Of a stretch of DNA of 34,224 bases, positions 1,445-27,418 are shown piece by piece. Under the pieces are notes generated by a model. That model was not told the DNA's origin. It saw only the letters and a list, made by a program, of their open reading frames with translations, and made no database searches. Both the position numbers and the translations under genes were made by a program. This stretch comes from a virus (Duplodnaviria; Heunggongvirae; Uroviricota; Caudoviricetes), in IMG/VR virus record IMGVR_UViG_2563366968_000004, positions 1 through 34,224 of that record. The stretch is one strand, 5' to 3'. The stretch's first letter is position 1, and each line of letters begins with the position of its first letter.

Positions 1445-1460
1445 TTCAAACATCTCCCCA

Positions 1461-1550: not shown

Positions 1551-1556
1551 GGTCAG

Positions 1557-1609
1557 ATGGGGGTACTTATGGGGGTATTTGCTGTTCGGTTTAGTGGAGG
1601 TACCCCCAA
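1557..1609 (+). repeat. TGGGGGTA octamer repeats (2 direct, 1 inverted) immediately upstream of int
   Basis: ATGGGGGTACTTATGGGGGTAT at 1557-1578 and the inverted copy TACCCCCAA at 1601-1609. The same 22-nt motif recurs at 19754-19777. Confidence 0.4.
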
Positions 1610-2824: not shown

Positions 2825-2968
2825 AACAACTGGACAAGTATACAGAGGTTTACTAAAGTATAGGGGAGTAGATTGATAAAAACTCACAGAGGATTGCTAT
2901 TTAACAGTTAGCCCTGGAGAAGGGCAATCGCTCTTTTACAAACGAAGGTGTATTGAGCCTTCTACGTC

Positions 2969-3030
2969 GCTGACAAAGCGGAATGTTCTTTAACAGGCTT
3001 TGGCGCTGACAAAGCGCAATTGTTCTTTAA
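2969..3030 (+). repeat. Tandem direct repeat CGCTGACAAAGCG(G/C)AAT(G/T)GTTCTTTAA (2 copies) in the int-alpA intergenic region
   Basis: Read directly; likely regulatory site for the alpA/early promoter. Confidence 0.35.
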
Positions 3031-3252
3031 AACTACTGGATGTCACGCCTAATAGCGTGATCCTGCCGAAATGCAGGGTAGCTCTACCCTTGTGGAGCAA
3101 ACAAACCAAAACAATCTGACTATCTTTTATAAAAGACCGCAATATGTTTTTCATATTGTGGTCTTTGGCGTATTCGACATTTGACGCAAATAAAACTCTC
3201 GCCATTCGTTGCAGGAGGGGGTTATTGCGTCATTAGTACAGGATATTAATAA

Positions 3253-3456
3253 ATGGCTAATTACAATTCATTAATTCGTCTCTCTGAAGTTCAAAGGCGA
3301 ACTGGTTATAGCAAAGCATGGATTTATCGTCTTATTAGTCAGGGGAGGTTCCCTAAACAGGTAAAAATTGGAAGTCGGGCAATTGCTTTTGTTGAGTCTG
3401 AAATAGATGAATGGATTGAGAAGTGTATATTAGAATCTAGAGACGAGGTGGCCTGA
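3253..3456 (+). CDS. alpA: AlpA-family transcriptional regulator / excisionase-like (67 aa)
   Basis: Hallmark AlpA sequence (LIRLSEVQRRTGYSKAWIYRLISQGRFPKQVKIGSRAIAFVESEIDEWI). Int-AlpA pairing is typical of P4-like and PICI elements. Confidence 0.85.
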   Translation: MANYNSLIRLSEVQRRTGYSKAWIYRLISQGRFPKQVKIGSRAIAFVESEIDEWIEKCILESRDEVA

Positions 3457-3887
3457 TGGAAAAGAAAAACCGCCCATTACAGGCGGCTAATTCAGATATT
3501 CGTGTATCTGATGTTACGCCCCTTACAAAATCCCCTCAAGCACCAAAGCGCACACCGAAAAAGCATCGTGCCAGAGTCTATATGCTGCGTACTGGTATAG
3601 AGGGATGGACAGAAAATGACATTCTTCGCTACTGCCGTCTGTCTTCTGGTCGTAACTATGCAACAGAGTTAGAACGCCAGCTTGGAATCACTCTGGAGCG
3701 TATCGACGAAAAGAATCCTGATGGTATCGGAACACACCTTCGCTACCGTTTCTCCTGCCGTGGTGATGTTCTGAAAGTGATCACTCATATTAACCATCTT
3801 GCGAACATAAATGATCACAACGGACTTTCTCAGCAGGAAATTGCCGACATTCTGAAACTCTACCCGGACGCGTTTAACGCCGCCTAA
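3456..3887 (+). CDS. Hypothetical protein (143 aa)
   Basis: ATG overlaps the alpA stop (translational coupling); basic N-terminus; no family recognised. Confidence 0.55.
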   Translation: MEKKNRPLQAANSDIRVSDVTPLTKSPQAPKRTPKKHRARVYMLRTGIEGWTENDILRYCRLSSGRNYATELERQLGITLERIDEKNPDGIGTHLRYRFSCRGDVLKVITHINHLANINDHNGLSQQEIADILKLYPDAFNAA

Positions 3888-3899
3888 CGGAGACTGAAA

Positions 3900-4733
3900 A
3901 TGAACATCGAAAAAAGCAGATTAATTTCTGAGGCCGCCCCTCATCTGAACGCCTCTCTGGGCACAATTAACGGTAATGAATTTGCCGCAATTGTCCCGGT
4001 TATTCCTGGTCATATCGGTGGGCGTGAAACCAATATTGTTAGCGCAAAAGCGTTACACAAAGCGTTGGGCGTGGGAAAAGACTTCTCTACATGGATCACT
4101 GATCGCATCTCTGAATATGACTTCACCATTGGGCACGATTACTCAGTCCATAAAACTATTTCCCCAAATTTGGGGAAAATCCCGAATGGCGCGGCTTACA
4201 GCAAGATTAAGCAGTCTGGCAGACCCGGCAAAGACTATCTGTTAAGTGTCGGAATGGCGAAAGAACTGGCAATGATCGAACGCAATGATCAGGGGCGCGC
4301 TATCCGCCGTTATTTCATCCAGTGCGAGGAAGAATTACAGCGTAGCGTGCCTGAAATCGCCGCCCGCTATCGTCGCCAGCTAAAAGCCCGTCTCAGTGCC
4401 GCAAACAACTTTAAGCCAATGTGCGATGCGCTGAATATGGCCCGTGCCGAGATGGGTAAAACGACGCAGCAACACCACTACACAAACGAGAGCAATATGA
4501 TTTCTCGTATCGTTCTTGGTGGGCTAACTGCTAAACAGTGGGCGCGGATAAATGGCTATTCTGGCGAACCTCGCGACCATATGAACGCAGAACAACTTGA
4601 GCACCTCTCATATCTCGAAAGCACCAATATCACGTTAATTGATATGGGCATGGAATATGAGCAGCGCAAAGGAGAACTCACCCGACTGTCGCAACGCTGG
4701 CTCGCCAAGCGTCTGGAGGCGGTCAATGTTTAA
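3900..4733 (+). CDS. Phage antirepressor-like protein (Ant/KilA-C-like domain), 277 aa
   Basis: GGAG RBS; central region (DFSTWITDRI, LSVGMAKELAMIERNDQGRAIRRYF) resembles the phage antirepressor family. Confidence 0.55.
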   Translation: MNIEKSRLISEAAPHLNASLGTINGNEFAAIVPVIPGHIGGRETNIVSAKALHKALGVGKDFSTWITDRISEYDFTIGHDYSVHKTISPNLGKIPNGAAYSKIKQSGRPGKDYLLSVGMAKELAMIERNDQGRAIRRYFIQCEEELQRSVPEIAARYRRQLKARLSAANNFKPMCDALNMARAEMGKTTQQHHYTNESNMISRIVLGGLTAKQWARINGYSGEPRDHMNAEQLEHLSYLESTNITLIDMGMEYEQRKGELTRLSQRWLAKRLEAVNV

Positions 4734-4908
4734 GCCGACAGGAACACCACAACCTCAAAAACGCTACAAAGATGCCCACGGAGCACTCGTTACTGTCGAA
4801 AGCGTGTCTCACAACCGAGTGACGTTTTATCGCGACGGGTATCAATCGCCATGCGTACAACCGCTGGCGCGTTTCATGAAGGAGTTCGCGGAGGTTAACA
4901 AATGCTAA
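4726..4908 (+). CDS. DUF4222-like small protein (60 aa)
   Basis: ATG overlaps the previous stop. Pattern YKD-G-V-V...RV-FYRDGY-C-PL-F-F-E matches the small phage protein family that recurs at 26264-26485. Confidence 0.5.
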   Translation: MFKPTGTPQPQKRYKDAHGALVTVESVSHNRVTFYRDGYQSPCVQPLARFMKEFAEVNKC

Positions 4909-5930
4909 CCGTCCAGAAGAAGACATTTTCACTGGCTGGTATGTCGCCAAAATCCAGCAATATGACAGCAAAGTCAGGCATTAATACAGCAGATACAAGC
5001 AAAGTTTATCATTTGCTGGTGGTAGGAGCGGATGCCTTAACTATGTCAGAAATTACGGTCGATGGTGTTAGCGTTGAGAAGGTCAGCGGCTGCGCCAGAG
5101 AATTTCTGGTCGTAGATCACCTGTTCTGCTCGTGTAGTGACTCCACAAAAACATTCGTCCACGTGCGTGACGTTAACGAAATGAGCGCGATGTATTGTGC
5201 ATCTGGTGCTTCCAATAGTGAGTTTTCGGAGTCCATAAAAAAGAGCTTGCCGTTATGCGGCAACACGGTTTATGGTTATAAGGCACCTCATAAAACGGGT
5301 GCCGGGATTAGGACCCCGCAGGCAATCGAGGCGATACATGACGCGCCAGCGTCTTTTTTTGTATCGGCGCACACGCACACCTTATCAATGGTGGGCTGTA
5401 TGGGGCTGACTTCGGTCAGGCTGGTTTCCTTGATTGCCAGTAGTCCTAACCCTGTACAGTCCACCGCCAGCGAGCTTAGGACCTCCGGCGGTGGCTATAA
5501 ACCATCAATCAAGGAGGCTGCCACATGCTGGCTACTACCCCTACCCAAAAACCGCAATTTATCTGGATTATCGCCGCAGTTCGCCGCGATTGCCCGACAA
5601 TTACCGCCAAAATTCATCATATTGCTGCCGAGTCTGAACGCGATGCTCGCCGTTCTCTGGTGCGCGATCACGTCTGCTTTTTTGCTGGTCGTATCCGCAT
5701 GGAGGTGGCACATGATTAAAACCTACGATGTGCATATGGATCCCCTCGAACGCACAAGCCAGATCATCACACTGACAGAAGTGATTAACGACATTCTGGT
5801 GAGCAACTCTCCCTCACGAGACGAAAGGCTGAAGGCGTTACTCGCGATATTGGATCTCGCCGTTCGTGACGTTCATTTCCTGCTGGAAGGTGGACAAATG
5901 CCAGTAAAAACGGGGGCAACCAATGAATAA
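4902..5930 (+). CDS. Hypothetical ORF (342 aa as one frame); probably a composite, the central part looks non-coding in this frame
   Basis: ATG overlaps the upstream stop (ATGCTAA). The N-terminal ~150 aa and the C-terminal 72 aa (from the internal ATG at 5712, with GGAGG RBS) look protein-like; the middle is Leu/Pro/Ser-rich and overlaps better ORFs in other frames. Confidence 0.3.
5525..5719 (+). CDS. Hypothetical small protein (64 aa)
   Basis: Strong AGGAGG RBS 7 nt upstream of the ATG; translation is protein-like. Confidence 0.4.
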   Translation: MLATTPTQKPQFIWIIAAVRRDCPTITAKIHHIAAESERDARRSLVRDHVCFFAGRIRMEVAHD

Positions 5931-6117
5931 CTCAATTAATACCCCTCGCCTTACGTCCGCACTTCAATTAATCGAGCAAGCAGCGGCTGTCCTGGTTGCT
6001 GTCAGTCTTTCGGCTGAAGAAATGGACGCTGCTGATGTCGTGGATGCGATTAAAGCGTGCTCATCTTTGGTTAACGATGCCCGTGCCGAGCTGGTAATTC
6101 TTGGGGGTGAAAAATGA
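5923..6117 (+). CDS. Hypothetical small protein (64 aa)
   Basis: ATGA start/stop overlap within a chain of coupled small ORFs typical of satellite/phage early operons. Confidence 0.5.
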   Translation: MNNSINTPRLTSALQLIEQAAAVLVAVSLSAEEMDAADVVDAIKACSSLVNDARAELVILGGEK

Positions 6118-6377
6118 ATATCAACTTAATTTATCGTCATCCGTGTGAGCTGGAAATTGAATCATTGCTGGGGCGCGAAGAGCCATATCCAGACACATTC
6201 ACTCCCGCAGATTGCGCGACTGAACGGCTTACCAGAGCGCGCACAGGTCTGGTTCATGTGATGAATGAGATTGTTCCCTCGGTGGGAGGGGAACAGGCGA
6301 CAGTAATCAATAGCTGGCTACAAAAAGTTACCTCCCTGATAGATATCGGTTTAATCGATGTGGAGAGTGCGAAATGA
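6114..6377 (+). CDS. Hypothetical small protein (87 aa)
   Basis: ATGA overlap coupling with the neighbouring ORFs. Confidence 0.5.
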   Translation: MNINLIYRHPCELEIESLLGREEPYPDTFTPADCATERLTRARTGLVHVMNEIVPSVGGEQATVINSWLQKVTSLIDIGLIDVESAK

Positions 6378-6595
6378 CCAACATCCAGCTCATTGAAGCG
6401 CAATGTCGCATCGAACAGGTTCAGACTGTTTTAGGGTTCTGGCTTGAAGGGGCCAGCCCCAGCAACAGAGACAAGTTAATGATTGGCGCGGTTATGTCAC
6501 TGCTCAATGGCGTACCAGAAGCTATTCAGGAAGCGGACGAATTGTTGGGCAAATATGAGTTACAGAATCATTCAGGCGAGGCGAAACATGAATAA
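6374..6595 (+). CDS. Hypothetical small protein (73 aa)
   Basis: ATGA overlap coupling with the neighbouring ORFs. Confidence 0.5.
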   Translation: MTNIQLIEAQCRIEQVQTVLGFWLEGASPSNRDKLMIGAVMSLLNGVPEAIQEADELLGKYELQNHSGEAKHE

Positions 6596-7190
6596 TTTCT
6601 TAACTTTCCATGCAGAAGCAACGCCTGACGGCGTAAACATCATGTACCGCAGCAACGATGGCATGACAGAACGCGTTGAGGCCGTCTCATATATTGATGC
6701 CGTAAATCGTCTGGATGCCGGGGATTATGACGATAAACCAGATGAAGGCATGTTTATACATCTCGCTATTGCCAGTGGCGGCAACCAGGGATATTTCGAT
6801 TACACATCACAGCATCACGTGATTATGTGGCGCTGGCTGATAGCAACAGCATTCATCAATGAAATGAGAAAGGAAAACGGCACCGTCAGCATTATTGATG
6901 ACAGTGGCAATCATTCCGTGGTTTCTGTTTATTCCAATGGCATCGTCGCCATGCCGCTGTATCCAGTAGCAGAGCGCCTCGCTATGGCAAACAACATTGA
7001 GGGCGCAATGATCGAGAAATATGGTGTTGATGTCGGAACAAAGAATGCCATCATTTTTTACAGCAACATGTTCGATGTCGAACAGGGAACACTCACTTCG
7101 TTTGGGCGAGAAGTGCTTGCCGATCTTCACAACAGCTTTATTGCCGAACTAAACGAAAACGGCATCCCAGAAGCACCAGTGACGCACTAA
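6588..7190 (+). CDS. Hypothetical protein (200 aa, start at internal ATG 6588)
   Basis: ATG at 6588 overlaps the upstream stop by 8 nt; the longer ORF from 6483 begins with an implausible N-terminus. Confidence 0.5.
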   Translation: MNNFLTFHAEATPDGVNIMYRSNDGMTERVEAVSYIDAVNRLDAGDYDDKPDEGMFIHLAIASGGNQGYFDYTSQHHVIMWRWLIATAFINEMRKENGTVSIIDDSGNHSVVSVYSNGIVAMPLYPVAERLAMANNIEGAMIEKYGVDVGTKNAIIFYSNMFDVEQGTLTSFGREVLADLHNSFIAELNENGIPEAPVTH

Positions 7191-7202
7191 ACGGGGGCCA
7201 GA

Positions 7203-9554
7203 ATGCGAAACATTGATCTTATCCGTCAGGTTATCAGTGCGTCTGAAAACAACTGGCCTCATGTGCTGGGCTGCCTGAACATAAATGTCCCTGACTCTCC
7301 GCGCCGTCATGCTCCCTGCCCTGCATGTGGGGGCAAAGATCGATTCCGGTTCGATGACAACGGGCGCGGTAGCTTCATCTGTAATCAGTGCGGCGCTGGT
7401 GATGGGCTGGATTTAATTAAACGCGTAAATAACTGCGACACAACAGAGGCGGCGCTTCTTGCCGCTGATGTTCTGGGTATTGATTACCGGACAACGGAAA
7501 CACCAGAAGCCACCAGCCAGAAACGGGAACAACTGGAAACCGAGCGCCAGCGACGCGAACAGGAGCGCCTGAAAAGGGCAGAGAAGGACGAACAACAAAG
7601 ACGGGATACGTTTTCCCGTCAGTTTGATGACATGCGCAGAAAGGCTGTAAACGGCAAATCTGATTATCTGGTTGCGAAAGGGGTAGGTGATTTTACATTC
7701 CCCGTGTTGCCCGATGGATCTCTGTTGCTGGCGCTGGTGGATAAATCCGGCGCAGTCACAGCAGCACAGACTATTACCCCACATGGTGAAAAAAGACTCC
7801 TGACAGGTTCGGCAAAGCGGGGGGCATATCACGCCATAAACGCACAGAAACGACCTCACAGCATCATAATTGCTGAGGGGGTGGCTACCGCCCTGTCGTG
7901 CCATTTAATTCGCCCTGACGCAATGACAGTGGCAGCAATCGACGCTGGCAACCTGTTGCCAGTAGCGGAAGTCATGCGCAGAACATATCCGCAGGCACAA
8001 ATAATCATTGCCGCAGATAACGATCACCAGCAAGGAGACTCAGAAAGTGGAGGGATCAACACGGGGAAAGATGCCGCAGAGAGGGCCGCTATTTCCGTAG
8101 CTGGCAGGGTGTCTCTGCCACCGACTGACTATAAAGCCGACTGGAACGACTATCACCAACAACACGGGCTGGCGGCAGCCACAGCAGCATTTAAAGATTC
8201 GATGTACCAGCCACGGGGGAAAGGGGCGCAGGTGAAAAATCACAAACAGTCAGTCGGGGCGCTGAATGAGATCAGTTCTGGCGAGGTGTTAAGCGATGAT
8301 GAAATTGCTGTCCTCGAAGAAATCAACCGGACGTTTACGCATGTCACCATCGGCGGGAAACACAAGGTGGTGTCGCTAAAGCCTTCTCAAACCGGCGGTG
8401 TATCGCACGTTTTCGAGGATTTATCACAATTTCAGCATTATTTTCATCATAAACCGAGAGTCGCCAGAAAGCTGGCGGGATCGGCGTGGCTGTCATGGAG
8501 TGGGAAGAACTACAAGCCAGGAGGCGTAGGATTTTATCCAGTACCAGACAAATGCCCTGACGATGTTTTTAATCTGTATGAGGGGCTGGCACTGGAACCA
8601 ATTGAAGGAGATTGCACGGTATACCTTAATCACCTGTTGCAGGTTGTCTGTGCCGGTAATGAAGAGGCATGCCAATATCTTATCCAGTGGATGGCGCACA
8701 TTATCCAAAAGCCTGATGAAAAACCGTCCGTGGCAATCGTGATGAAATCTGTCCCGGGCACAGGGAAAGGCACAACGGTTAAACCGCTGCTGCAAATACT
8801 GGGGCAGTACGCCGCCCACATTAACGGGGCGGGACATATTTCAGGGCGCTTCAATTCAATACTTGCTAACAAGCTACTGGTATTTGCTGACGAAGTGACG
8901 ATCCACAAGCCGTCTGAAGCTGACAGACTTAAAGCGATTATTAGCGAACCGACGTTTAACCTTGAGCGCAAGGGAATTGATGCTGAACCAATGCCGAATT
9001 TTGCCCGGTTGATATTTGCCAGTAACAGCACACAGGTATTACAGGCAGGGATAAGAGAGCGTCGCTATCTCGTGCTTGAGCCATCTCCTGAAAAAGCACA
9101 GAGCCGGGAGTATTTTGATCGGCTGTACAGTTGGCTTAATGATGGCGGTGCCGCAAAGTTGCTTTGGCATCTTAAAGGGGTGGATCTCTCAGGTTTTGAC
9201 CCTCAACGAGCGCCACAGACCGATGCCTTACGTGAAGAAATCTTGCTGGGGCTGTCTGGCGTTGAATTGTTTCTTTATGGCGAGCTAATCAATGAACCTC
9301 CGTTTAATGGCGAAGTCCGTTTGTTTGCAAAGGATATGGTTAGTCGGTTTGTAGCGTGGTCGCTTGAGCGTGGGGAAAAGCTTAAAGAACCAGCTGCCAG
9401 ATCACTACTGGGTAAATCACTTGCACAAATGGGGCTGGTGAAGCATGGAAGACCAGACCGAGGGAATGGCGTGTTCTACGAACTACCAGAGGTCGGAGTT
9501 CTACAGGCTGCGTTTGCCCGTCTGATCGGTATGGGGGGTTATGATGTTTTTTAA
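7203..9554 (+). CDS. Primase/helicase replication protein (zinc ribbon + TOPRIM primase + SF3/D5-like NTPase), 783 aa
   Basis: CPACGG...CNQCG zinc ribbon, TOPRIM-like IIIAEGVATAL...AADND, Walker A VPGTGKGT and Walker B LVFADEV; same domain logic as P4 alpha and PICI pri-rep. Confidence 0.9.
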   Translation: MRNIDLIRQVISASENNWPHVLGCLNINVPDSPRRHAPCPACGGKDRFRFDDNGRGSFICNQCGAGDGLDLIKRVNNCDTTEAALLAADVLGIDYRTTETPEATSQKREQLETERQRREQERLKRAEKDEQQRRDTFSRQFDDMRRKAVNGKSDYLVAKGVGDFTFPVLPDGSLLLALVDKSGAVTAAQTITPHGEKRLLTGSAKRGAYHAINAQKRPHSIIIAEGVATALSCHLIRPDAMTVAAIDAGNLLPVAEVMRRTYPQAQIIIAADNDHQQGDSESGGINTGKDAAERAAISVAGRVSLPPTDYKADWNDYHQQHGLAAATAAFKDSMYQPRGKGAQVKNHKQSVGALNEISSGEVLSDDEIAVLEEINRTFTHVTIGGKHKVVSLKPSQTGGVSHVFEDLSQFQHYFHHKPRVARKLAGSAWLSWSGKNYKPGGVGFYPVPDKCPDDVFNLYEGLALEPIEGDCTVYLNHLLQVVCAGNEEACQYLIQWMAHIIQKPDEKPSVAIVMKSVPGTGKGTTVKPLLQILGQYAAHINGAGHISGRFNSILANKLLVFADEVTIHKPSEADRLKAIISEPTFNLERKGIDAEPMPNFARLIFASNSTQVLQAGIRERRYLVLEPSPEKAQSREYFDRLYSWLNDGGAAKLLWHLKGVDLSGFDPQRAPQTDALREEILLGLSGVELFLYGELINEPPFNGEVRLFAKDMVSRFVAWSLERGEKLKEPAARSLLGKSLAQMGLVKHGRPDRGNGVFYELPEVGVLQAAFARLIGMGGYDVF

Positions 9555-9581
9555 TATAGTCTTTTTACAAGAAGATCGTTT

Positions 9582-9690
9582 TTACCTGTACCACCTATAC
9601 CACTTTGCTAATTCAGTATTAAAAACAATGTGTTATAGTGGTACAGGTCAATATCTTACCTATACCAGACCTGTACCACCTATACCATTA
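9582..9690. repeat. Iteron cluster CCTGTACCACC(TATACCA) (2 direct copies plus an inverted GGTACAGG copy); candidate ori
   Basis: Copies at 9584-9601, 9632-9644 (inverted) and 9671-9688, immediately downstream of the primase gene. Resembles P4 type-I iterons (TGTTCACC). Confidence 0.5.
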
Positions 9691-9730
9691 ACAAACGCAT
9701 TTCTTCTGGCTGGCTGAGAGGGAACAGCCA

Positions 9731-9961
9731 ATGATGAGCACACCATTTTACAAAGTGCGCCAGTTAGCTTCTTCCTCTGGCTGGCAGCTACGGTTTGAGG
9801 GGCGTTCAGACTGGCTACCCATTGCGGCATGGGCGAATGTTGAAATGTGTATTGACGGCGATACCGTTGAAATCATTATTCCCTGCGTGGCAAGTCGGGA
9901 CGGCTGTATAGAGCCAACAGATATGGCAGCAGAAATCAGAGAGGTAAAACATGAACAATAA
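9731..9961 (+). CDS. Hypothetical protein (76 aa)
   Basis: ORF with purine-rich RBS, lying between the two iteron clusters. Confidence 0.5.
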   Translation: MMSTPFYKVRQLASSSGWQLRFEGRSDWLPIAAWANVEMCIDGDTVEIIIPCVASRDGCIEPTDMAAEIREVKHEQ

Positions 9962-10688
9962 CTATTGCATACCGCAGGGAATGACCAGAACGGAGCGCGA
10001 AGAATTAAAAAGTTTCGCTACACAGTGCGGGAATGCTGGCGACATCCAAAGTCTGGAACGCACTTTAATTATGATTGCGCACTGGATGCGTCAGGGGCAA
10101 AGGGTTTCATTTACTGAATATGCCAGCCAGTGGACAGAGGCACAGCGCGAACGGAGCGACGGTAATCACTCAACACCCGAAATGGCGAAGCAATGGCCTT
10201 TCAGTGGTAAACGCTGTATCAGTCCCGGTGGTTCAGATTATTACCCTGCTGGTGTGGGAGATGAGCCATGTTGTGACGAGACTGAAATCCGCCACGCAGT
10301 GACAGTAATTACCGCTGAATACCCACAATTTAACCTTGACGGACTGGCGCTCCACAACCGGAATGCGGACTGGGAAAACCCGCTTGATAACCCGTCATTT
10401 ATCGTATCGGCGAAAAGCTGCCTGAGATGGATCAGAGACAACGGGATGAGTAATGCCCAGATTGAGAGCTTCCCGCAGGATAACCCCACATCTGACACGT
10501 TGAAGCATGAAGTGGAGCGATATAACCAGATAAACCACCAGCACAGTGATCACCCGCACTATATCCCCAACGGAGCATTTATTGCGGCGATGGTGGCAAG
10601 CGGCTACAAGGTTAAGCCAGCGGGAAGAATGAACGCATTTTTCAATATTTCAAAAAAAGGATTATGTGCTGCTATGGGTAAAAATTAA
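9951..10688 (+). CDS. Hypothetical protein (245 aa)
   Basis: ATG overlaps the upstream ORF; no family recognised. Confidence 0.55.
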   Translation: MNNNYCIPQGMTRTEREELKSFATQCGNAGDIQSLERTLIMIAHWMRQGQRVSFTEYASQWTEAQRERSDGNHSTPEMAKQWPFSGKRCISPGGSDYYPAGVGDEPCCDETEIRHAVTVITAEYPQFNLDGLALHNRNADWENPLDNPSFIVSAKSCLRWIRDNGMSNAQIESFPQDNPTSDTLKHEVERYNQINHQHSDHPHYIPNGAFIAAMVASGYKVKPAGRMNAFFNISKKGLCAAMGKN

Positions 10689-10691
10689 ATA

Positions 10692-10800
10692 AATGGTACA
10701 GGTCTGTACAGGTGGGGAGAGGTCATTTTTACCCACCTGTACCACCTGCAGGCCGCGCTACACAAGGGTTTGTGACATGGTGGTACAGGTGGTACAGCAA
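10692..10800. repeat. Second iteron cluster (GGTACAGG / CCTGTACC in both orientations); candidate crr-like cis replication region
   Basis: GGTACAGGTCTGTACAGGTGG, CACCTGTACCACCTGCAGG and GGTGGTACAGGTGGTACAGC read directly; same core as the 9582-9690 cluster. Confidence 0.5.
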
Positions 10801-11162
10801 AAACAGCGATTTTCTTTATAAGGTATGTTTTGCTCATCTGGCAGACGGAGGTATTCGCTGCGGTTTGGCACGTAGCCCAGAACAGCAAAGAGTTTTACGA
10901 GACTTTTGTAAAATCCAGTGTACAAGGGCGTGACGTTTTTGAAGGAGAGACCTACGAAATTTTCGTAGTTCAAAAAATAGCCTCTGAGATGTTGTTATGC
11001 CTGTTCAGCAAACCATCCGCATAGCTGATCGCGAATCAAATTACCAATGGAGCCAGAAGCAAGGGCAGAACTGGAAAGCGCCTGCCGTGAAGAGTAATGC
11101 GACATCATAAATATAGTTTTTAGAGTCCATAAAAAACCTGTCAAAACCTGACATACAGAACG

Positions 11163-11196
11163 ATGCCACCAGCTACTGAGCGGTGGCATTTTTTTG
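11163..11196 (+). terminator. Rho-independent terminator (GCCACC-loop-GGTGGC followed by TTTTTTT)
   Basis: ATGCCACCagctactgagcGGTGGCAT then a T7 run, read directly; insulates the downstream operon. Confidence 0.55.
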
Positions 11197-11290
11197 TGCT
11201 ATTTGTTTCATATTTTGCAATCACAATGATGAATGTTGCGTTTTGTGAAACTATAATGACTGTTGTTTTATACAGTTCTAAGGGGACGTT

Positions 11291-11464
11291 ATGGCTATTT
11301 CAGTAAAGCCAGTATTGATAAGTGAGAAGCAAATGGAAGCGATAAAGAAAATTCAGGAGGAGCAGCGTAAAAAATCAGAGGTAGGAGTTGCGCCAACGAT
11401 CCACGAAATTGCTCGGGGATTAATGGATAAGGCGCTGGCTTACACTTTAACTGGACGTGGGTAA
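11291..11464 (+). CDS. Small protein (57 aa), possibly a ribbon-helix-helix type DNA-binding protein; first gene of the cargo operon
   Basis: AAGGGG RBS 6 nt upstream of the ATG; TATAAT at 11253-11258. Absent from the ORF track (below 60 aa). Stop is 5 nt before the next ATG. Confidence 0.45.
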   Translation: MAISVKPVLISEKQMEAIKKIQEEQRKKSEVGVAPTIHEIARGLMDKALAYTLTGRG

Positions 11465-11468
11465 ATTT

Positions 11469-12935
11469 ATGGCTACTTGGCAACAAGGAATCAACTCAGG
11501 CGGTTTTCTGGCTGGCATCGGTACGCAAAACGAGAATGCGCCAAAGGCAAGCGACATTAACGCAACGCTTGGTCTGATCCGCGAAAACAATGAACTGGCT
11601 CGCTCAGGTGCAAATAACGTTGCTCTGACAGGTCTTCGTGGTCTGGCTGGAGTTGCTGATATTTATAAGCAGCAGCAACAGCAGGAGCGTAAAGCGGCAT
11701 TCCAGAAAGGTTATGCAGATGCTTATGCGTCCGGTGACAGGGAGCAGATGCGTAATCTTATTACAGCATTCCCAGAAGAGTTTGAGGAAGTCCGTAAAGG
11801 GATGAGTTATGTCGATGATGCTCAAAGGGATGATTATGGCAATCTGGCGCTCAAAGCACAGGTAGCCTCATCGCTTGGTCCGGGCGCATTTGGCAGGTTC
11901 ATGATGGATAATGAGCAGGAGATGCGTCGTTTAGGTATCCCTCCAGAAACTATTGCTGAAATGCAGGTTAATGACCCGCAGGGCTTCCAGCATTTCGCAG
12001 GTAATCTGGCGCTGTTTTCTCTCGGTCATGAGAAGTATTTCGATATCAAAGATCAAATGGAAGGTCGGGATATTGAGCGTGGCAAGTTGGCAGAGACAAT
12101 CCGCAGCAATCAGGCTGGCGAAGCACTTCAGGCGAGAGGGCAGGATATTAGCCGAGCAAATGCGTTAACGTCAGCATATGCACCAACAGCAGCAATGCAG
12201 AATTACAATCAGTACGCGCAAATGTTAAAGGCGGATCCAGAGGGGGCGGCGGCATTTGCGGCAGCGGCTGGAATTAATACAAACGCCAAAAAATTAATGA
12301 GTGTTAGAGAAAACGATGATGGCACTGTCACAAAATACTACACAGACGGAAGTGAAGAGCAGGGAAAACTAAACCAGCCAATATCTGGAGATGGGTTTCG
12401 TCCAATAGCTTTGCCAACAGCCCAAAAGATCATGGAAAAGTCGCCAGAAGGGGCTAAAAAAGCTGCTGGATTTGCATACAGGGTTAGGGATGCTCTTGAT
12501 TCAATAGATACACTGAAAGACCAGCTTAGCCCACAGCGAGTGGCGATCATTAATAATGCTTTGGGTAATGGGACGCTGGCTAACTTAACGCTCAGCCCAG
12601 CAGAGCAGCAATACGTTGTTAATGCTAATGACGCAATAATGGCAATACTCCGTCAGGAAACAGGGGCATCTATCCTACCAGCTGAAATGTCCAAATATTA
12701 TCAAATGTATTTCCCTCAGCCTGGTGATTCCACAAAAACCATTGATACCAAGCGCCGGAAGATGGAAAACCAGTTCAATTCGCTGAAAGCTGCTTCTGGT
12801 CGAACTTATGATGCTTTGCGGGTTATTTCAGCAGTTGACAGAGGAACTGCTTCTTCGTCGCAGACATTGCCGCAATCTGAGCAGGTATCACAGCCAGCAG
12901 CCAGCAGTAACTTTTCTTCACTATGGGGTGATTAA
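11469..12935 (+). CDS. Large Ala/Gln-rich hypothetical protein (488 aa from ATG 11469; 492 aa if GTG 11457 is used)
   Basis: Long ORF with good coding character, poly-Q tract (QQQQQ), predicted helical/coiled-coil; no catalytic motif recognised by eye. Confidence 0.7.
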   Translation: MATWQQGINSGGFLAGIGTQNENAPKASDINATLGLIRENNELARSGANNVALTGLRGLAGVADIYKQQQQQERKAAFQKGYADAYASGDREQMRNLITAFPEEFEEVRKGMSYVDDAQRDDYGNLALKAQVASSLGPGAFGRFMMDNEQEMRRLGIPPETIAEMQVNDPQGFQHFAGNLALFSLGHEKYFDIKDQMEGRDIERGKLAETIRSNQAGEALQARGQDISRANALTSAYAPTAAMQNYNQYAQMLKADPEGAAAFAAAAGINTNAKKLMSVRENDDGTVTKYYTDGSEEQGKLNQPISGDGFRPIALPTAQKIMEKSPEGAKKAAGFAYRVRDALDSIDTLKDQLSPQRVAIINNALGNGTLANLTLSPAEQQYVVNANDAIMAILRQETGASILPAEMSKYYQMYFPQPGDSTKTIDTKRRKMENQFNSLKAASGRTYDALRVISAVDRGTASSSQTLPQSEQVSQPAASSNFSSLWGD

Positions 12936-15040
12936 TGGCTAAAGCATGGAAAGATGTTATCGCCTCTCCACAGTATCAGGCGTTAGCACCAGAACAAAAA
13001 GCGCAGGCTCAGGAGCAATACTTCAATGAAGTCGTTGCCCCGAAAGCCGGAGAAAGTGTAGAGCAGGCTAAGCAGGCTTTTTATGCTGCCTATCCACTAC
13101 CATCAACGAATGCAATAGACCGATCCCAATCAGCAACTCAAAATATTCAACATACATCATCTGATAATTCTCTTGCGTCAGGGTATGCAAAGTTAGCTAC
13201 TCAGCAAAGAGAGGGGCTTGAGCGTTCAGCAGAACAGGGAGCCAGTCTTGGGGCTGCGATGCGCGATGCTATAACAGGCGAAAGCCGAATGACTCCAGAG
13301 ATGGAGAGACTGCAAAATGTCGCCTCTGCCCCAGAATTGAACTCACTAAGCATGGATGCCCTAAAGGCTGGATGGTCTCAACTTTTCGGCTCTGACGCGT
13401 CTCAGGAAAAGATTCTTCAGGGAATGGGGGCGACATTAAGGCAGGATGAGAAGGGGAATACTATCGTTTCTCTGCCATCAGGTGATTATGCCCTGAACAA
13501 GCCGGGTTTATCACCGCAAGACCTGACCTCGTTTCTTGCTAATGCGTTGGCGTTTACACCAGCGGGCAGGGCCGGAACGGTGCTGGGGGCCATAGGAAAA
13601 TCAGCAGCTACAGATTTAGCACTACAGGGAGCCACCAGCCTTGCTGGTGGAGAAGATATTGATCCGTTACAAACGGTAATTTCTGCTGGCATTGGTGGTA
13701 TTGGTAAGGGGCTGGAAAATACAGCGAGTGCGGTTTCGAGGGCTGTTCGTGGTGATATGTCGCCTGAAGCAAAGGCTGCTGTCGACTTTGCATCGGAAAG
13801 AAATCTGCCGTTAATGACCAGTGACATGCTGAAAGATAAAACCTTTATGCAGAGTCAGGCTCAGACATTAGGCGAAAGAGTTCCTTTTTTTGGAACCGGT
13901 AAGAATCGGCTGAATCAACAACAAGCACGAGAAAATTTAGTCAGAACATTTAGCGATGGTCTGGGTGGCATTTCTGATAAACAGCTTTATGAATCTGCGA
14001 CTAAAGGGCAACAAAAATTCATTGAGGCAGCAGGAAAGCGATATAACCGCATAATTGACGCTATGGGGGATACCCCTGTCGATCTCTCAAACACGGTAAA
14101 AGCTATCGACAATCAGATTGCCGTGTTAAGCCGCCCGGGCAAATCTCAGGATAGAGCCGCGGTAAAAGTCTTGCAGCAATTTAAAGACGATATCACCAGC
14201 GGACCAAATGACCTGCGTCTGGCGAGGGAAAACAGAACCGATCTTCGAAAGCGATTTATGGCGTCATCTGACACTGTTGATAAAGATACGCTCCAGAAAG
14301 CCAGCGATATTATCTACAAGGCATATACGGCGGATATGAAAAAAGCCGTAGCCAAAAATCTTGGAGCAGACGAAGCCATTAATATGGCAAGGGTTGATCG
14401 CTCATGGTCTAAATTCAATGACATGATGGGAAGAACGCGCGTTCAAAAGGCAATAGCCAGCGGCAAGGCCACGCCTGAGGATGTAACAAAACTCGTTTTT
14501 AGCCAAAGCCCATCAGAACGTTCTCAGCTTTACAGGCTTCTGGATGACAATGGTAGGCAAAACGCACGAGCAGCCATAGTTCAGAATGCTGTAGATAAGG
14601 CGACTGATCCGTCTGGAAATATCAGTGTTGAGAAGTTTATTAATGCGTTACACCGGAACAGGAAGCAATCAGCAACTTTCTTTAAAGGCGTACATGGAAA
14701 GGAACTGGACGGCGTTATTAAATACCTCAACGATACAAGACACGCGGCAAAAGCGAACGTTCAAAACTTAAATGGTCAGCAGCTTTATGGATTGTTAGTT
14801 GGTGGTGGCATCATAAACGCAGCAGTATTAGCGGGGATGCTAAAAACGGCTGCGTTTGTTGTTCCTGCTGCTGGTGCCGTAGGCGGAGCAGCGAAGGCAT
14901 ACGAAAGCCCTGTTATACGAAATGCCTTGTTACGTCTGGCAAATACGCCAAAAGGTAGCACAGCATATGACAGAGCGATCAGTACGGTCACACAATCGCT
15001 CACCAGAGTCGCACAGGCATCACAAAAAGAATCTCAATAA
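12935..15040 (+). CDS. Large Ala/Gln-rich hypothetical protein (701 aa) with C-terminal Gly/Ala-rich hydrophobic hairpin
   Basis: TAATG overlap with the upstream gene. Hydrophobic glycine-zipper segment LYGLLVGGGIINAAVLAGMLKTAAFVVPAAGAVGGAAKA at about 14783-14900; no canonical Walker A. Confidence 0.75.
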   Translation: MAKAWKDVIASPQYQALAPEQKAQAQEQYFNEVVAPKAGESVEQAKQAFYAAYPLPSTNAIDRSQSATQNIQHTSSDNSLASGYAKLATQQREGLERSAEQGASLGAAMRDAITGESRMTPEMERLQNVASAPELNSLSMDALKAGWSQLFGSDASQEKILQGMGATLRQDEKGNTIVSLPSGDYALNKPGLSPQDLTSFLANALAFTPAGRAGTVLGAIGKSAATDLALQGATSLAGGEDIDPLQTVISAGIGGIGKGLENTASAVSRAVRGDMSPEAKAAVDFASERNLPLMTSDMLKDKTFMQSQAQTLGERVPFFGTGKNRLNQQQARENLVRTFSDGLGGISDKQLYESATKGQQKFIEAAGKRYNRIIDAMGDTPVDLSNTVKAIDNQIAVLSRPGKSQDRAAVKVLQQFKDDITSGPNDLRLARENRTDLRKRFMASSDTVDKDTLQKASDIIYKAYTADMKKAVAKNLGADEAINMARVDRSWSKFNDMMGRTRVQKAIASGKATPEDVTKLVFSQSPSERSQLYRLLDDNGRQNARAAIVQNAVDKATDPSGNISVEKFINALHRNRKQSATFFKGVHGKELDGVIKYLNDTRHAAKANVQNLNGQQLYGLLVGGGIINAAVLAGMLKTAAFVVPAAGAVGGAAKAYESPVIRNALLRLANTPKGSTAYDRAISTVTQSLTRVAQASQKESQ

Positions 15041-15058
15041 CTGGTTAGCCATGGATGG

Positions 15059-15478
15059 CTAATTTTTGTTCTTTGCTCTCATCCATAGGTAAAGAAGGGA
15101 AAGAACAAGACAAAAAACAGAGAATAGATAACCTACCTCATATGGTGCGCCAAAAAAATTAGCTATTGATACGGGCAAAAAAGCTGAAGCGATCAAAATT
15201 GAAAGGCAAAAAATAAGCCCAGTAATATAGTTTATTAAATTCTTAAATGAGAAACGTTTTGCTTGATTTACGGTCTTAACGAACGATCGCTTAACGACGG
15301 ATAAAAGCAAATAGATGGCGACAGTTGCTAATGCCCCTTTCCACCAGTCTGGATATAGTTTTGCGACAATCAGACCAAGTAAAACCATGATGACAGCCTG
15401 AGCATTCACACCAACCCTCCCTTTAGCTTTGTTTAGAATGGCAATCATCATATATCCAAGACATGGCATTTGGTACAT
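15059..15478 (-). CDS. Small integral membrane protein (139 aa, about 4 TM helices), convergent to the 701 aa gene
   Basis: Four hydrophobic segments in the translation; stop is 18 bp from the stop of the 701 aa gene. Start codon uncertain (several in-frame Met, no strong SD). Confidence 0.6.
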   Translation of the reverse strand: MYQMPCLGYMMIAILNKAKGRVGVNAQAVIMVLLGLIVAKLYPDWWKGALATVAIYLLLSVVKRSFVKTVNQAKRFSFKNLINYITGLIFCLSILIASAFLPVSIANFFGAPYEVGYLFSVFCLVLSLLYLWMRAKNKN

Positions 15479-15595
15479 AGCTTGGGTCGGGATTTCAAAT
15501 CCGCTCCCAGTTGATGGGGCCGTTACAGTACGCGCATATCCGCTTTATGTGAAACAGGAAGATTTTTCTGATATCACTGCCACAGCAAAACACCA

Positions 15596-15618
15596 ATTTC
15601 GAGACAAGTACGCGCGCG
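15596..15618 (+). repeat. Direct repeat copy A: ATTTCGAGACAAGTACGCGCGCG
   Basis: One of three copies of ATTT(C/T)G-GACAAGTACGCGCGCG (also 15880 and 18178); contains alternating CG. Related degenerate copies at 15525-15543 and 15659-15680. Confidence 0.4.
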
Positions 15619-15879
15619 AGGGGTATCAGTTGCAAAAAATTTTGCAACTACGTCCGACCAGTACGCGCACGATGGAGGGGAGTACCATAAAACTGTTCTC
15701 TACATAAGTCAGAGTAGTGGTGATGTGTTGATTATCGGCGTATATGCGCACAGGACGCGCTATGACGATGTTTTATGCGGGTACACCAATCACATGTATC
15801 TGGTGTGATAAATCGCGTTACATGACCTCTCATGTTGTGCTGGTGGTTATCACGACTTTCTGAATCTGGCCTTTGCCTG

Positions 15880-15908
15880 ATATTTTGCGACAAGTACGCG
15901 CGCGTAGC
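15880..15908 (+). repeat. Direct repeat copy B: ATTTTGCGACAAGTACGCGCGCGTAGCA (contains 12-bp palindrome TACGCGCGCGTA)
   Basis: Read directly; lies about 380 bp upstream of the Abi gene. Confidence 0.4.
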
Positions 15909-16283
15909 ATCGAAATTATCGGATGGCGTATGCTGCTGGCAATATGAAGACCGATAGTATTAACCGAAAAGCGATTAAGGAGTGCCAACTTTTCAGTAGA
16001 GAAACTAGCCAGCATAGGAAAATGTAGAAATTACCCAATTAATAGGTAAAAGTTATTGACACAGCCTGTAGTGGATAACGATATGAATAAAAACCACATA
16101 TAGTGGTTTTTCGTGAGTGATGATAGTACCTATGTTAGTTTCCTAAGTAACTGTGCATTGACATGTGGATAACTTCGGATAGAGTTACACTCAACTGAGC
16201 CCGGCCCCCTGGCTTTATCTTGTCTTAGATGAGAAATTGTTATGGCCGGGCCTTCTTGTATCTGGAGGTAGGAAACCTTTTGT

Positions 16284-17246
16284 ATGGCTGTTCCGGTTAA
16301 GGTTCATAAAGAATATGATGAACTTGTCGATTTATTGCTGTCTCGGGGTATGGATGTGCCAGATCGCGAACATGCTATCAAGAAAATCTCACAAGTAGGC
16401 TACTACCGATTATCAGGCTTTTGGTACCCCTGCCGAATCCCCCATATAACAACAGACAATATTAGAACCAGACTCGATCAGGTTCGTCCAGGTACTAATT
16501 TTCGCGCAGTATATGACCTCTATTTATTCGATAAAAATCTGCGTTTGCAGATGATGAATGCGTTAGAACGCATTGAGGTTTATGTTCGGTCAGTTATTGC
16601 TCATGAGCTTGGTAAGATATCTCCTTTAGCATATCTTGATGACTCGCTAATAAATCCAAAACACTTTAGACCACGTTCCCATGGTCGCCCAAGCGCCAGA
16701 GAAGAATGGATAAATAAACATAATGCCGAGATTGCTAAAAGTCGCGAAGACTTTATCAAATGGCATGAAAACAAGTACGAAGGTCTTCCTTTCTGGGTGG
16801 TTATTGAAGTGTGGGACTTCGGCTTAATGTCAAAGTATTATGCGATGCTAAAAGACAGCTATCGCAACAGGATACTATCTAGGCTAGGGATAGCGGCAGG
16901 CAATGGAGCTATCTTCCAAAACTGGCTTAGCGCAATGAATGTGCTAAGGAATCGGTGCGCTCACCATTCACGCATCTGGAACAAGGTCAACGAACCAAGA
17001 TTAATGCCTTTGCCAAATGAGCCGTACTTTGAACAATTAAATATGAATGATGATGCGTACGAAAGAATGTACGGAATGATCGCTGTGTTATGGTTTTTAG
17101 TGAAAAAAATTGGACCGGGATCTGACTGGATAAAAAAAGTTGCCAACCTTGTAGATAACAAGCCTAACTTACCAGGATGTAACCTGACAGCCATGGGATT
17201 ACCTGATAATAACGGTTTCCCAAGGCATTTATTTGATATTGAATAA
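16284..17246 (+). CDS. Abortive infection protein, Abi_2 family (AbiD/AbiF-like), 320 aa
   Basis: N-terminal region (LLSRGMDV..., QVGYYRLSGFWYP, VYDLYLFDKNLRLQMMNALERIEVYVRSVIAHE) matches the Abi_2 family pattern. AT-rich gene with a roughly 800 bp AT-rich leader. Confidence 0.8.
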   Translation: MAVPVKVHKEYDELVDLLLSRGMDVPDREHAIKKISQVGYYRLSGFWYPCRIPHITTDNIRTRLDQVRPGTNFRAVYDLYLFDKNLRLQMMNALERIEVYVRSVIAHELGKISPLAYLDDSLINPKHFRPRSHGRPSAREEWINKHNAEIAKSREDFIKWHENKYEGLPFWVVIEVWDFGLMSKYYAMLKDSYRNRILSRLGIAAGNGAIFQNWLSAMNVLRNRCAHHSRIWNKVNEPRLMPLPNEPYFEQLNMNDDAYERMYGMIAVLWFLVKKIGPGSDWIKKVANLVDNKPNLPGCNLTAMGLPDNNGFPRHLFDIE

Positions 17247-17247
17247 A

Positions 17248-17703
17248 TTATAGCGATGGCGCTGAATGTAGCGCCACTGATAACTTTTCAGCATTGCTTC
17301 CCTGACGCTTCCACGCGCTGTAAATATCTTTATCCCATGCCTTACCAGCTTTTGTTTGATAGCCTGCTTCATTGATCCGTTCAGCTATCACGCGCCCATT
17401 ATCAAATCCCTGTCGGATGGTATCGGCAATGATCTTTATAACTGCCGTTTCGTTATATGGCTTTGGTGGGATGTTCGGCTTTCCGGCAATAAGCGACGCA
17501 GCGGCTTTTTCCATGCGCTCCACCAGCCCAAGCATTCGTGAATCAATAGACTTTTCCGGCTGTCCCAGCTTCATGCGAATCGCATCAACAAGCCAGGAGG
17601 TTTTATCCCCTCCAGAAGCGAGAACAGACCGATTAAACTCATCCTGCAATTCAGATGGGATGCGGAACGCGACCAGATTAGATTTGCTCATTGCAAAGAC
17701 CAT
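17248..17703 (-). CDS. Putative DNA-binding protein with N-terminal ribbon-helix-helix-like motif (151 aa)
   Basis: N-terminus NLVAFRIPSELQDEFNRSVLASGGDKTSWLVDAIRMKL resembles the CopG/Arc RHH fold; stop is 1 bp from the Abi stop (convergent). Confidence 0.55.
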   Translation of the reverse strand: MVFAMSKSNLVAFRIPSELQDEFNRSVLASGGDKTSWLVDAIRMKLGQPEKSIDSRMLGLVERMEKAAASLIAGKPNIPPKPYNETAVIKIIADTIRQGFDNGRVIAERINEAGYQTKAGKAWDKDIYSAWKRQGSNAEKLSVALHSAPSL

Positions 17704-17715
17704 ATCAGTGAGTAA

Positions 17716-17750
17716 TATCCATACAGTATACCACTGTATAACACTGTTAT
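17716..17750. promoter_or_regulatory. Operator-like palindromes in the divergent promoter region (TACAGT-N5-ACTGTA and GTATAACA-C-TGTTATAC)
   Basis: Perfect inverted repeats read directly between the divergently oriented RHH-like and PerC-like genes. Confidence 0.3.
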
Positions 17751-17855
17751 ACGCTCAAATATCAGCCAGAAAATAACGGACCAATCACAAAGCTATCGCT
17801 GTGTTGTTGGTTCAGAGCTGGGCTGTGTTGGTTCAAAATAATCTGAGAGGCAGAA

Positions 17856-18137
17856 ATGATAAGGGACAGGAAAGCTGAAGAGCTGGAGTCAAAAGGGCTA
17901 TACCGGAGAGCTGCCGCACGATGGATGGAAGTCATGCTGTTATGCACCGAGGACGATGATCGGGAATGGATAAAGCGCCGCCGTGAAACGTGTCTGGAGA
18001 ACGTGAAGCGCCCGCCCGTGAAGGTTGAGGACTTTGGCGACCTGCATAAAGCTGTTACCGAAACGCAACACCGCATGGGGATAGCGCAACCGAACGGTAA
18101 CGCCTTCCGGTTAAATGGCGGCAAGAGGCAAAGGTAG
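17856..18137 (+). CDS. PerC-family transcriptional regulator (93 aa)
   Basis: Signature ELESKGLYRRAAARWMEVML is characteristic of the PerC family. Confidence 0.7.
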   Translation: MIRDRKAEELESKGLYRRAAARWMEVMLLCTEDDDREWIKRRRETCLENVKRPPVKVEDFGDLHKAVTETQHRMGIAQPNGNAFRLNGGKRQR

Positions 18138-18177
18138 ACCACCAGAGGGAAATCATCCTCTGGCTGGCGGTTTCTGG

Positions 18178-18208
18178 TATTTCGGGACAAGTACGCGCGC
18201 GCGTAGCA
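18178..18208 (+). repeat. Direct repeat copy C: ATTTCGGGACAAGTACGCGCGCGCGTAGCA (14-bp palindrome TACGCGCGCGCGTA)
   Basis: Same motif as 15596 and 15880; copies B and C bracket the Abi/RHH/PerC module. Confidence 0.4.
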
Positions 18209-18434
18209 CCCAATCGGTGAGGAAATAGCGGCGACCTGAATGGTCAAAATCACAACGCAGCTATCCCCGTAAGCAGCGCTTAACGGAATAGCAGTAACCT
18301 GAATCCAGTGGGGAGGGGGTAGTCAAATCTCTACAGCCCTGACTATCCGGGACTGCCCGCCCCATCGTTTTTTTATACCCGCGAAAAATGAAATTTAATC
18401 CGGGCGTGTTTCATCCTTCCAGAGGGTATGACGT

Positions 18435-18620
18435 ATGACACCACGCGAAATAGCCTTATTGACCATCGCCAAACTTGAGCACGGAGGCCACCAGCTTACA
18501 CAGGCAGATCAACGGGAGATAGAACGATCAGTTAATGCCGATATAGCCCGGCGCGACAGGTTCCGCGAAATGATGCGAGCACCTGCCTACCAGTGGAAGA
18601 AGCCAGCGCCGCGCAGGTAG
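18435..18620 (+). CDS. Hypothetical small basic protein (61 aa)
   Basis: ORF with GAGGG RBS; no family recognised. Confidence 0.35.
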   Translation: MTPREIALLTIAKLEHGGHQLTQADQREIERSVNADIARRDRFREMMRAPAYQWKKPAPRR

Positions 18621-18740
18621 ATATGGGATTATTCCACATGTAACTTATGCGTATTAAGCAAATTTCCTTTATTCACCTTTACAGAATTGTGAGTACGTCA
18701 GTATCGTTATCCTTCCGATTCGCATTTATTCAGGATTTGC

Positions 18741-27416: not shown

Positions 27417-27418
27417 TC

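Follow-up and report, generated by a model that had tools for sequence, protein, structure and literature searches.

A probable bipartite iteron origin of replication 3' of the primase-helicase gene in an EcCIMP1-like island at thrW of Escherichia coli

The window analysed here, the whole stretch of 34,224 nucleotides (nt) of IMG/VR record IMGVR_UViG_2563366968_000004, is a part of the Escherichia coli chromosome that begins with proA and the tRNA-Thr gene thrW. It carries at thrW an island resembling EcCIMP1, the phage-inducible chromosomal island (PICI) of E. coli MP1, and this report concerns the candidate replication origin of that island. Immediately 3' of the primase-helicase gene lie two clusters of short repeats, A and B, which enclose two open reading frames (ORFs) of 76 and 245 amino acids (aa), ORF76 and ORF245 (Table 1). 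An initial annotation of the sequence had located the two clusters, with motifs in both orientations, about 1.1 kb apart and with two ORFs between them; a recount of the repeat units and reading frames bore out each of these points.

The repeats, or iterons, are built on a 9-bp unit with the core CTRTACCA (fuller form ACCTRTACCAC), in which core position 3 alternates between G and A (CTGTACCA and CTATACCA). Because of this unit length and alternation, the 11-mer by which the initial annotation had described the repeats picks out real repeats while undercounting their units. Motif counting, which it had proposed as a check, places the clustering far above expectation. Seven matches to CCTGTACCACC with at most one mismatch are found in the window against 0.28 expected, six of them in the two clusters, and none of 100 shuffled sequences reached seven. 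The exact 8-mer CTGTACCA is present in eight copies in the 34,224 bases, where about one would be expected, and seven of the eight fall within 9586-10797. When one mismatch is allowed, the densest 120-nt interval contains six cores (maximum of three in 200 shuffles), and 120-nt intervals outside the clusters contain two at most. The iteron is essentially absent from the remainder of the window, and a chance origin of the repeats is excluded by the shuffles.

Table 1. Positions of the candidate origin, its initiator gene and the surrounding elements in the window
Feature	Position	Strand	Remarks
Exchangeable replicon cassette	8225-10888	+	Helicase/winged-helix half, A, ORF76, ORF245, B; comparison with sibling island L002
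Primase-helicase, P4-alpha-type	7203-9554	+	783 aa; Pfam, BLASTP against alpha
Primase-helicase domains			Zn ribbon aa 34-69; Toprim aa 221-322; DUF5906 helicase of superfamily 3 (SF3) aa 515-614; predicted C-terminal winged helix
C-terminal 148 aa	9108-9551	+	Predicted winged-helix DNA-binding domain; candidate iteron reader
Cluster A	9584-9688		P4-ori1-type unit; 6 iterons
Cluster A iterons	9586-9593 (+), 9595-9602 (+), 9639-9646 (-), 9660-9667 (+), 9671-9678 (+), 9680-9687 (+)
Cluster A AT-rich spacer	9603-9637		35 nt, 77% A+T; candidate DNA-unwinding site
ORF76	9731-9961	+	Predicted small all-beta protein
ORF245	9951-10688	+	Cargo gene; overlaps end of ORF76
Cluster B	10694-10797		Inverted paralogue of A; 4-5 iterons
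Cluster B iterons	10694-10701 (-), 10704-10711 (-, degenerate), 10737-10744 (+), 10781-10788 (-), 10790-10797 (-)
Cluster B inner spacer	10747-10778		GC-rich, 44% A+T
thrW island, EcCIMP1-like PICI	1369-19000		About 18 kb
tRNA-Thr (thrW)	1369-1444
Integrase	1610-2824		Follows tRNA-Thr
Inj_translocase	11457-12935		P22-type ejection protein; occupies place of packaging module
DNA-transfer/transglycosylase protein	12935-15040		P22-type ejection; occupies place of packaging module
Lambdoid prophage integrase	19863-21026	-
Lambdoid prophage S24-type cI repressor	24530-25222	-
Lambdoid prophage CII	25573-26130
Lambdoid prophage HTH_36 replication-type protein	26475-27416
Lambdoid prophage porin gene	31685-32767	-

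Cluster A starts close to the gene, its first iteron beginning 32 nt past the stop of the primase-helicase ORF, which ends at 9554. Two direct iterons are followed by a 35-nt spacer, one inverted iteron, 13 nt and three direct iterons. We compared this arrangement with the annotated P4 record, read in the orientation of the alpha gene, in which ori1 (9310-9413) opens with two iterons; its 35-nt spacer (85% A+T) then leads to a single inverted iteron, beyond which 13 nt precede the last three. Placed in a common 126-nt frame, the units start at 11, 20, 64, 85, 96 and 105 in cluster A and at 11, 21, 65, 86, 97 and 107 in ori1, the third being inverted and the others direct in both, and the spacings (9, 44, 21, 11 and 9 nt against 10, 43, 22, 11 and 10 nt) match within 2 nt. 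A TTTTAC lead-in and the AT-rich spacer are also common to the two. Since the sequences themselves are only 56% identical (z = 2.4), the resemblance is one of architecture and not of alignable homology. For low duplex stability, the 35-nt interval 9609-9643, which overlaps the spacer of A, lies above the 99th percentile of the window, and so does 9539-9573, just upstream of the cluster.

Two other candidate features of the clusters were rejected. ORF58 (9541-9717), which overlaps cluster A, is to be regarded as a repeat artefact and not as a gene, its tblastn 'homologues' being translated iterons (YLYHLYH) in other loci. Structured RNA was suggested only by sub-threshold matches to Rfam miRNA models, which are caused by the inverted iterons.

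In cluster B, an inverted iteron and a second, degenerate inverted one are followed after 21 nt by a direct iteron, a 32-nt spacer and two inverted iterons. Short strings common to the clusters had suggested a direct paralogy; however, A aligned to the reverse complement of B gives z = 6.5, against -0.7 for B taken directly, which favours the inverted orientation. At the outer ends, the arms 9580-9603 and 10780-10803 show 88% complementarity. A GC-rich B spacer is seen in the lineages of E. coli, Buttiauxella and Methylobacter (the window and loci L004, L012, L017 and L018), which share in it a GGCCGCGCC-like motif adjacent to a potential short hairpin (GCCAGAGCTGGC in L004 is an example); the Xenorhabdus spacer is 79-91% A+T.

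The protein encoded upstream of the clusters is of the P4-alpha type. Its N-terminal 335 aa are 33% identical to alpha (BLASTP, E 1e-40), and the Pfam domains Zn_Ribbon_Prim, Toprim_3 and DUF5906 are collinear with those of alpha, DUF5906 (E 1.4e-19) corresponding to aa 500-608 of the P4 protein. No match to the D5_N domain was found in the primase-helicase. The helicase core matches the NrS-1 primase-helicase in PDB, and the flanks of the helicase show no detectable sequence similarity to alpha. For the C-terminal domain, which is predicted to form a winged helix, the structural matches include the origin-binding domain of P4 (1KA8). Neither BLASTP nor hhalign nor hmmsearch against PDB detected sequence similarity between the two domains; sequence homology was consequently set aside, the predicted similarity being at the level of the fold only. 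The putative recognition helix and wing residues A97, R98, G114, R115, G121 and Y124 (numbered in the 148-aa domain) are invariant in 16 homologues, and those among the 16 whose loci were examined have the same CTRTACCA core. The gene itself is a mosaic (7203-8224 against 8225-9554) with a recombination junction near codon 340. The same Zn-ribbon/Toprim N-terminus, 74-88% identical, is joined in other enterobacterial islands to at least three C-terminal halves, namely DUF5906/winged helix (783 aa), DUF927 (918-925 aa) and DUF5906+D5_N+Pox_D5 (816 aa).

Comparison with L002, a sibling island of the EcCIMP1 type, delimits an exchangeable cassette. The two islands are 95% identical at 1869-7188 and 88% at 7203-8224; homology is lost over 8225-10888 and returns at 10889 (94%), so that the cassette ends on the right 90 nt after cluster B. 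The segment that replaces the cassette in L002 comprises a DUF927 C-terminal half and GTTGGTTCA iterons: the stop codon is directly followed by three GTTGGTTCA units and, across 40 nt of AT-rich sequence, by three more in inverted orientation. This single cluster spans about 115 bp and encloses no ORFs, and both ORF76 and ORF245 are missing. EcCIMP1 itself has a DUF927-type C-terminal half where the island in the window has the DUF5906/winged-helix cassette; the two share the left arm, for which the window is 95% identical to an EcCIMP1-type island, and the late region, but not the replicon cassette. The N-terminal 45% of the window and L002 proteins is 85% identical, and a primase domain 85-88% identical is found joined to a DUF927 half with GTTGGTTCA iterons. 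In the other direction, helicase/winged-helix proteins devoid of the Zn ribbon and Toprim domains, from Pantoea, Buttiauxella massiliensis, Methylobacter and Methylomonas, still have CTRTACCA iterons downstream. The iterons therefore track the C-terminal half both ways, and their inheritance, as judged from these sequence comparisons, is linked to the helicase/winged-helix half rather than to the primase half.

This co-inheritance bears on the idea that the repeats do not serve to initiate replication and are mainly transcriptional operators for ORF76, ORF245 and the downstream ejection-protein operon, bound by the primase-helicase or by some other regulator of the island. Cluster A does lie upstream of ORF76 and B upstream of the late-region genes, and the iteron origins of plasmids commonly serve as autoregulatory sites as well. 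However, the clusters co-vary with the helicase/winged-helix half and not with the island regulators, which are 95% identical in the sibling bearing different iterons. They are retained at loci where no ORF separates or follows them, and cluster A has the geometry of a proven origin, P4 ori1. No promoters or terminators were found within either cluster, and the single sigma-70-like promoter site (9852-9879, against 3.7 expected) overlaps neither. An operator function as the principal role of the repeats is therefore very unlikely.

The association between this type of protein and its iteron extends well beyond E. coli. A scan of one genome per species with a profile of 21 homologues gave 18 loci, in nearly all of which the CTRTACCA core ranks first among the 8-mers over-represented downstream of the gene. 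Within each locus of 4-14 kb, nearly all exact cores lie within about 1.3 kb 3' of the gene (for example 8 of 8, 7 of 7 and 7 of 7). Homologues 49-64% identical, from Buttiauxella, Xenorhabdus, Methylobacter and Methylomonas, are followed by clusters in the A and B layouts. The A layout is common to E. coli, Buttiauxella, Pantoea, Xenorhabdus, Methylobacter and Methylomonas (12 related loci), and the B layout of inverted units, a direct unit, a spacer and two inverted units is kept in 10 related loci of five genera. The separation of A and B is far from constant: it is about 15 bp in B. massiliensis and about 40 bp in another two Buttiauxella, rises to about 120 bp in Methylobacter and about 300 bp in Xenorhabdus, and reaches about 1 kb in E. 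coli and one Buttiauxella. In Sansalvadorimonas, whose homologue is only 34% identical, CTGTTCCA is found instead of CTRTACCA.

Within E. coli, about 130 of 5,426 complete genomes contain the 1.6-kb region of interest with an identity of at least 95%, in every case on the chromosome and in at least two integration contexts. In a variant 97% identical to the window, the two intergenic regions carry 14 substitutions, all of which fall outside the ten 8-bp cores (p ~0.013); one of the substitutions, T to G at 10705, brings the degenerate unit of cluster B nearer to the consensus.

The two ORFs between the clusters differ in their distribution. Homologues of ORF76, 41-74% identical, immediately follow cluster A. 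Those of E. coli, Buttiauxella and Xenorhabdus have B on their other side; in Pantoea, no B was detected. The gene has a good ribosome-binding site and in Xenorhabdus exactly fills the interval between the clusters; it is absent where the two halves adjoin and hence is not essential to the replicon. Modelling from a shallow alignment suggests a small all-beta barrel, and searches of domain families, PHROG and structures gave no convincing structural or family match. For ORF245, no Pfam, NCBIfam or PADLOC match was obtained, only one weak PHROG match of unknown function (E 7e-4). Its homologues form 29 clusters, the named ones from Enterobacterales. It is inside the A-B interval only in E. coli and one Buttiauxella, and follows B in Xenorhabdus. 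In L003, a satellite-like island of E. coli ARS-C101, an ORF245 homologue stands directly after a RepA-helicase origin region that has no CTRTACCA repeats. The putative origin there (5608-6018 of L003) comes after a RepA-family helicase and consists of 400 nt of AT-rich DNA in which AAAAGTGAGG/GTGAG repeats occur. ORF245 thus recurs beside unrelated origins and is a mobile cargo gene, and the A-B interval would be a slot for such cargo.

A further possibility is that ORF76 and ORF245 are carried by a small mobile cassette with A and B as its terminal inverted repeats, given that the two clusters are inverted paralogues with complementary outer arms bracketing both genes. This is extremely improbable. 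A and B stand side by side with an empty interval in three loci (L017, L011 and L012), ORF245 lies outside the pair in Xenorhabdus and occurs in L003 apart from these repeats, and the interval encodes no transposase or recombinase. The searches made did not reveal 9580-10803 at unrelated loci as a separate unit flanked by target-site duplications.

Taken together, these comparisons suggest that clusters A and B are most probably a bipartite, initiator-binding iteron origin of the EcCIMP1-like island at thrW. According to this model, once the island is induced and excised, the primase-helicase would bind the 9-bp iterons through its C-terminal winged helix. The opposed iterons around the AT-rich spacer of A would position the SF3 helicase to melt and enter the DNA, and the N-terminal Toprim primase would then prime synthesis, as in P4 ori1. 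Cluster B may provide a second binding platform about 1 kb away that cooperates with A or regulates it through protein-mediated looping, acting like P4 crr (the cis replication region) as an enhancer or regulator of initiation and not as a site of melting, while the interval between the halves tolerates cargo. In iteron plasmids (P1 incA, F incB/incC, RK2), an auxiliary array outside the melting origin likewise binds the initiator, and can 'handcuff' origins and tune initiation. The initiators of those plasmids are winged-helix Rep-family proteins, dimers or monomers, that recruit the host DnaB, whereas here the initiator would itself be an SF3 primase-helicase.

A number of observations weigh against the proposed bipartite origin. 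The NCBIfam model of the P4-family primase C-terminal domain (TIGR01613) gives only 19.3 bits against a cut-off of 108.7, cluster B shows no similarity to the crr unit of P4 (z at most 0.4), and the publication on EcCIMP1 mentions no ori (PMC11773190). The spacers of A and B are both AT-rich in Xenorhabdus, and the A spacer is only 53-59% A+T in B. massiliensis and Methylobacter. Pantoea stewartii keeps A and ORF76 and has no cluster B within 6 kb, so that B may be dispensable. Because of these spacers and the Pantoea locus, the specific division of labour between A and B described above has only about an even chance of being correct.

The same Pantoea locus, together with the complete ori1 layout and AT-rich spacer of A and the single cluster of the sibling DUF927 replicon, would be accounted for if A alone were the origin and B a non-essential duplicate, either a relic or a redundant second origin, with no role in cis. 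We regard this as improbable. The layout of B is kept in its 10 loci despite the wide variation of the A-B distance, its cores are free of substitutions in the 97% variant, and the boundary of the exchangeable cassette takes in B. Besides, the Pantoea open frame has no primase half, and its protein may be a truncated remnant.

The initial annotation had compared the region with the ori/crr organisation of P4 and had read it as the replication origin. This interpretation is supported by the sequence comparisons, with refinements as to the type of island and the nature of A and B. The likeness is substantial, with iterons in both orientations, iterons directly 3' of the gene and a second iteron region at a distance. 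The C-terminal domain of P4 alpha is said, from the work of Ziegelin, Lanka and co-workers as well as Flensburg and Calendar, to bind the type 1 iterons of both ori and crr, and crr is reportedly needed in cis. Cluster A does have the ori1 layout, but B is not a copy of crr, and the parts are arranged differently. In P4 it is crr, two direct 120-bp repeats located 46-345 nt downstream of alpha, that adjoins the gene, and ori1 lies 2.3 kb upstream of the alpha start, 4.7 kb from crr. Here the ori1-like unit adjoins the gene, and the second region is a single inverted copy of it about 1 kb away. The iterons also differ, the type 1 iteron of P4 being TGTTCACC.

The initial annotation had called the element a satellite. 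The island belongs to the PICIs of the EcCIMP1 type and is distinct from P2-dependent satellites of the P4 type. When its larger ORFs were scanned with Pfam and PHROG, AntA, Ash, the primase and ejection proteins of the P22 type were recognised. In another E. coli genome, RefSeq annotates a sibling copy that has a different integrase and site and is 100% identical to the window over 9400-11000; none of sid, psu and delta is listed in it. EcCIMP1 and the island in the window share the thrW/proA site and the gene order of integrase, helix-turn-helix (HTH) regulator, AntA, Ash, primase, ejection ('DNA transfer') proteins and PerC. For EcCIMP1, experiments have demonstrated excision and transduction by Kapi1, a P22-like phage (PMC11773190), and thereby induction, replication and high-frequency transfer that depend on a helper phage.

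The origins of Gram-negative PICIs lie directly 3' of pri-rep and consist of two iteron sets on either side of an AT-rich stretch, the putative site of melting; alleles of pri-rep can be exchanged, each having iterons of its own, transcription of the islands is unidirectional, and EcCICFT073's pri-rep-ori segment replicates a plasmid (PMC6092414). The island in the window has an integrase at its att site, a regulator of the AlpA/HTH kind, unidirectional transcription and pri-rep followed by the candidate origin, in line with the features listed in that study (Fillol-Salom et al. 2018, PMC6092414), and the form of origin that the study describes is seen both in cluster A and in L002. The published PICI origins are single compact regions (PMC6092414), in contrast to the two inverted halves found here, which have up to 1 kb of coding cargo between them. 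An iteron origin 3' of a satellite primase-helicase is a kind already known, such origins being established for P4 and for PICIs. What is new is the present allele with its iteron, neither of which was found in the searchable literature, the near-exact ori1 geometry combined with a DNA-binding domain not recognisable by sequence, and the split, inverted and cargo-bearing arrangement.

The origin of the EcCIMP1 family has not been described before, and the region studied here offers a concrete candidate from a variant of that family: 9584-9688 plus 10694-10797, with a minimal replicon of approximately 8225-10888 plus the primase domain. Replicon cassettes composed of a helicase/origin-binding half and its cognate iterons are swapped between otherwise 95%-identical islands through a junction inside the gene, which would explain why replication is specific in co-resident satellites and why these are expected to be compatible. 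The design of P4 ori1 would thereby extend to a wider group of primase-helicases that reaches the methanotrophs. If the ori1 geometry has indeed been kept while the sequence of the origin-binding domain became unrecognisable, it may reflect a fixed assembly geometry of SF3 primase-helicases in P4 and many satellites. If both halves must cooperate, the replicon would demonstrate initiator-mediated looping over 0.02-1 kb and could represent an evolutionary intermediate toward the ori/crr arrangement of P4.

The number of genes between the halves (none in B. massiliensis at about 15 bp, one, ORF76, in Xenorhabdus and two in E. coli) allows speculation about the form of the family origin. It might be a quasi-palindrome made of two P4-ori1-type units tail to tail, with a centre permissive for gene insertion; ORF76, found only inside such an origin, would then be a replication accessory or copy-number factor. 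We put this forward tentatively, as a view that is rather less likely to be right than wrong.

The remainder of the island contains, besides the integrase, AntA antirepressor, Ash protein, primase-helicase and the two hypothetical genes, the P22-type ejection proteins, an AbiD-like gene and others, and all its genes as far as 15040 are on the + strand. Immediately to the right of the cassette, about 110 nt (10889-11000) recur with 88-92% conservation in over 400 E. coli genomes whose replication modules differ from this one. This segment contains the 15-nt palindrome TACGAnnnTTTnGTA twice, at 10896-10910 and 10953-10967, 57 nt apart, and looks like the operator or promoter region of the ejection-protein operon; a 39-nt piece of it also matches KilAC antirepressor genes on plasmids. 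A terminator-like hairpin with a T-run (GCTACTGAGCGGTGGC ATTTTTTTGT) at 11172-11195, before the late genes, ends a conserved stretch of about 300 nt without a long ORF (10889-11190). The stretch could be a leader or a small RNA and has no match in Rfam.

Further into the late region, approximately 1.3 kb present in L002 is absent here (window 11439-11649 against L002 9551-10848); the extra DNA encodes a DUF2824 protein and a 225-aa protein. The accessory region of the island includes an AbiD-family abortive-infection gene at 16284-17246 (PADLOC AbiD, E 2.7e-57), which is likely an anti-phage cargo gene. A second mobile element, a lambdoid prophage at 19863-34224, adjoins the island and, in addition to the genes listed in Table 1, encodes a PerC-domain protein, KilA-N and DUF968.

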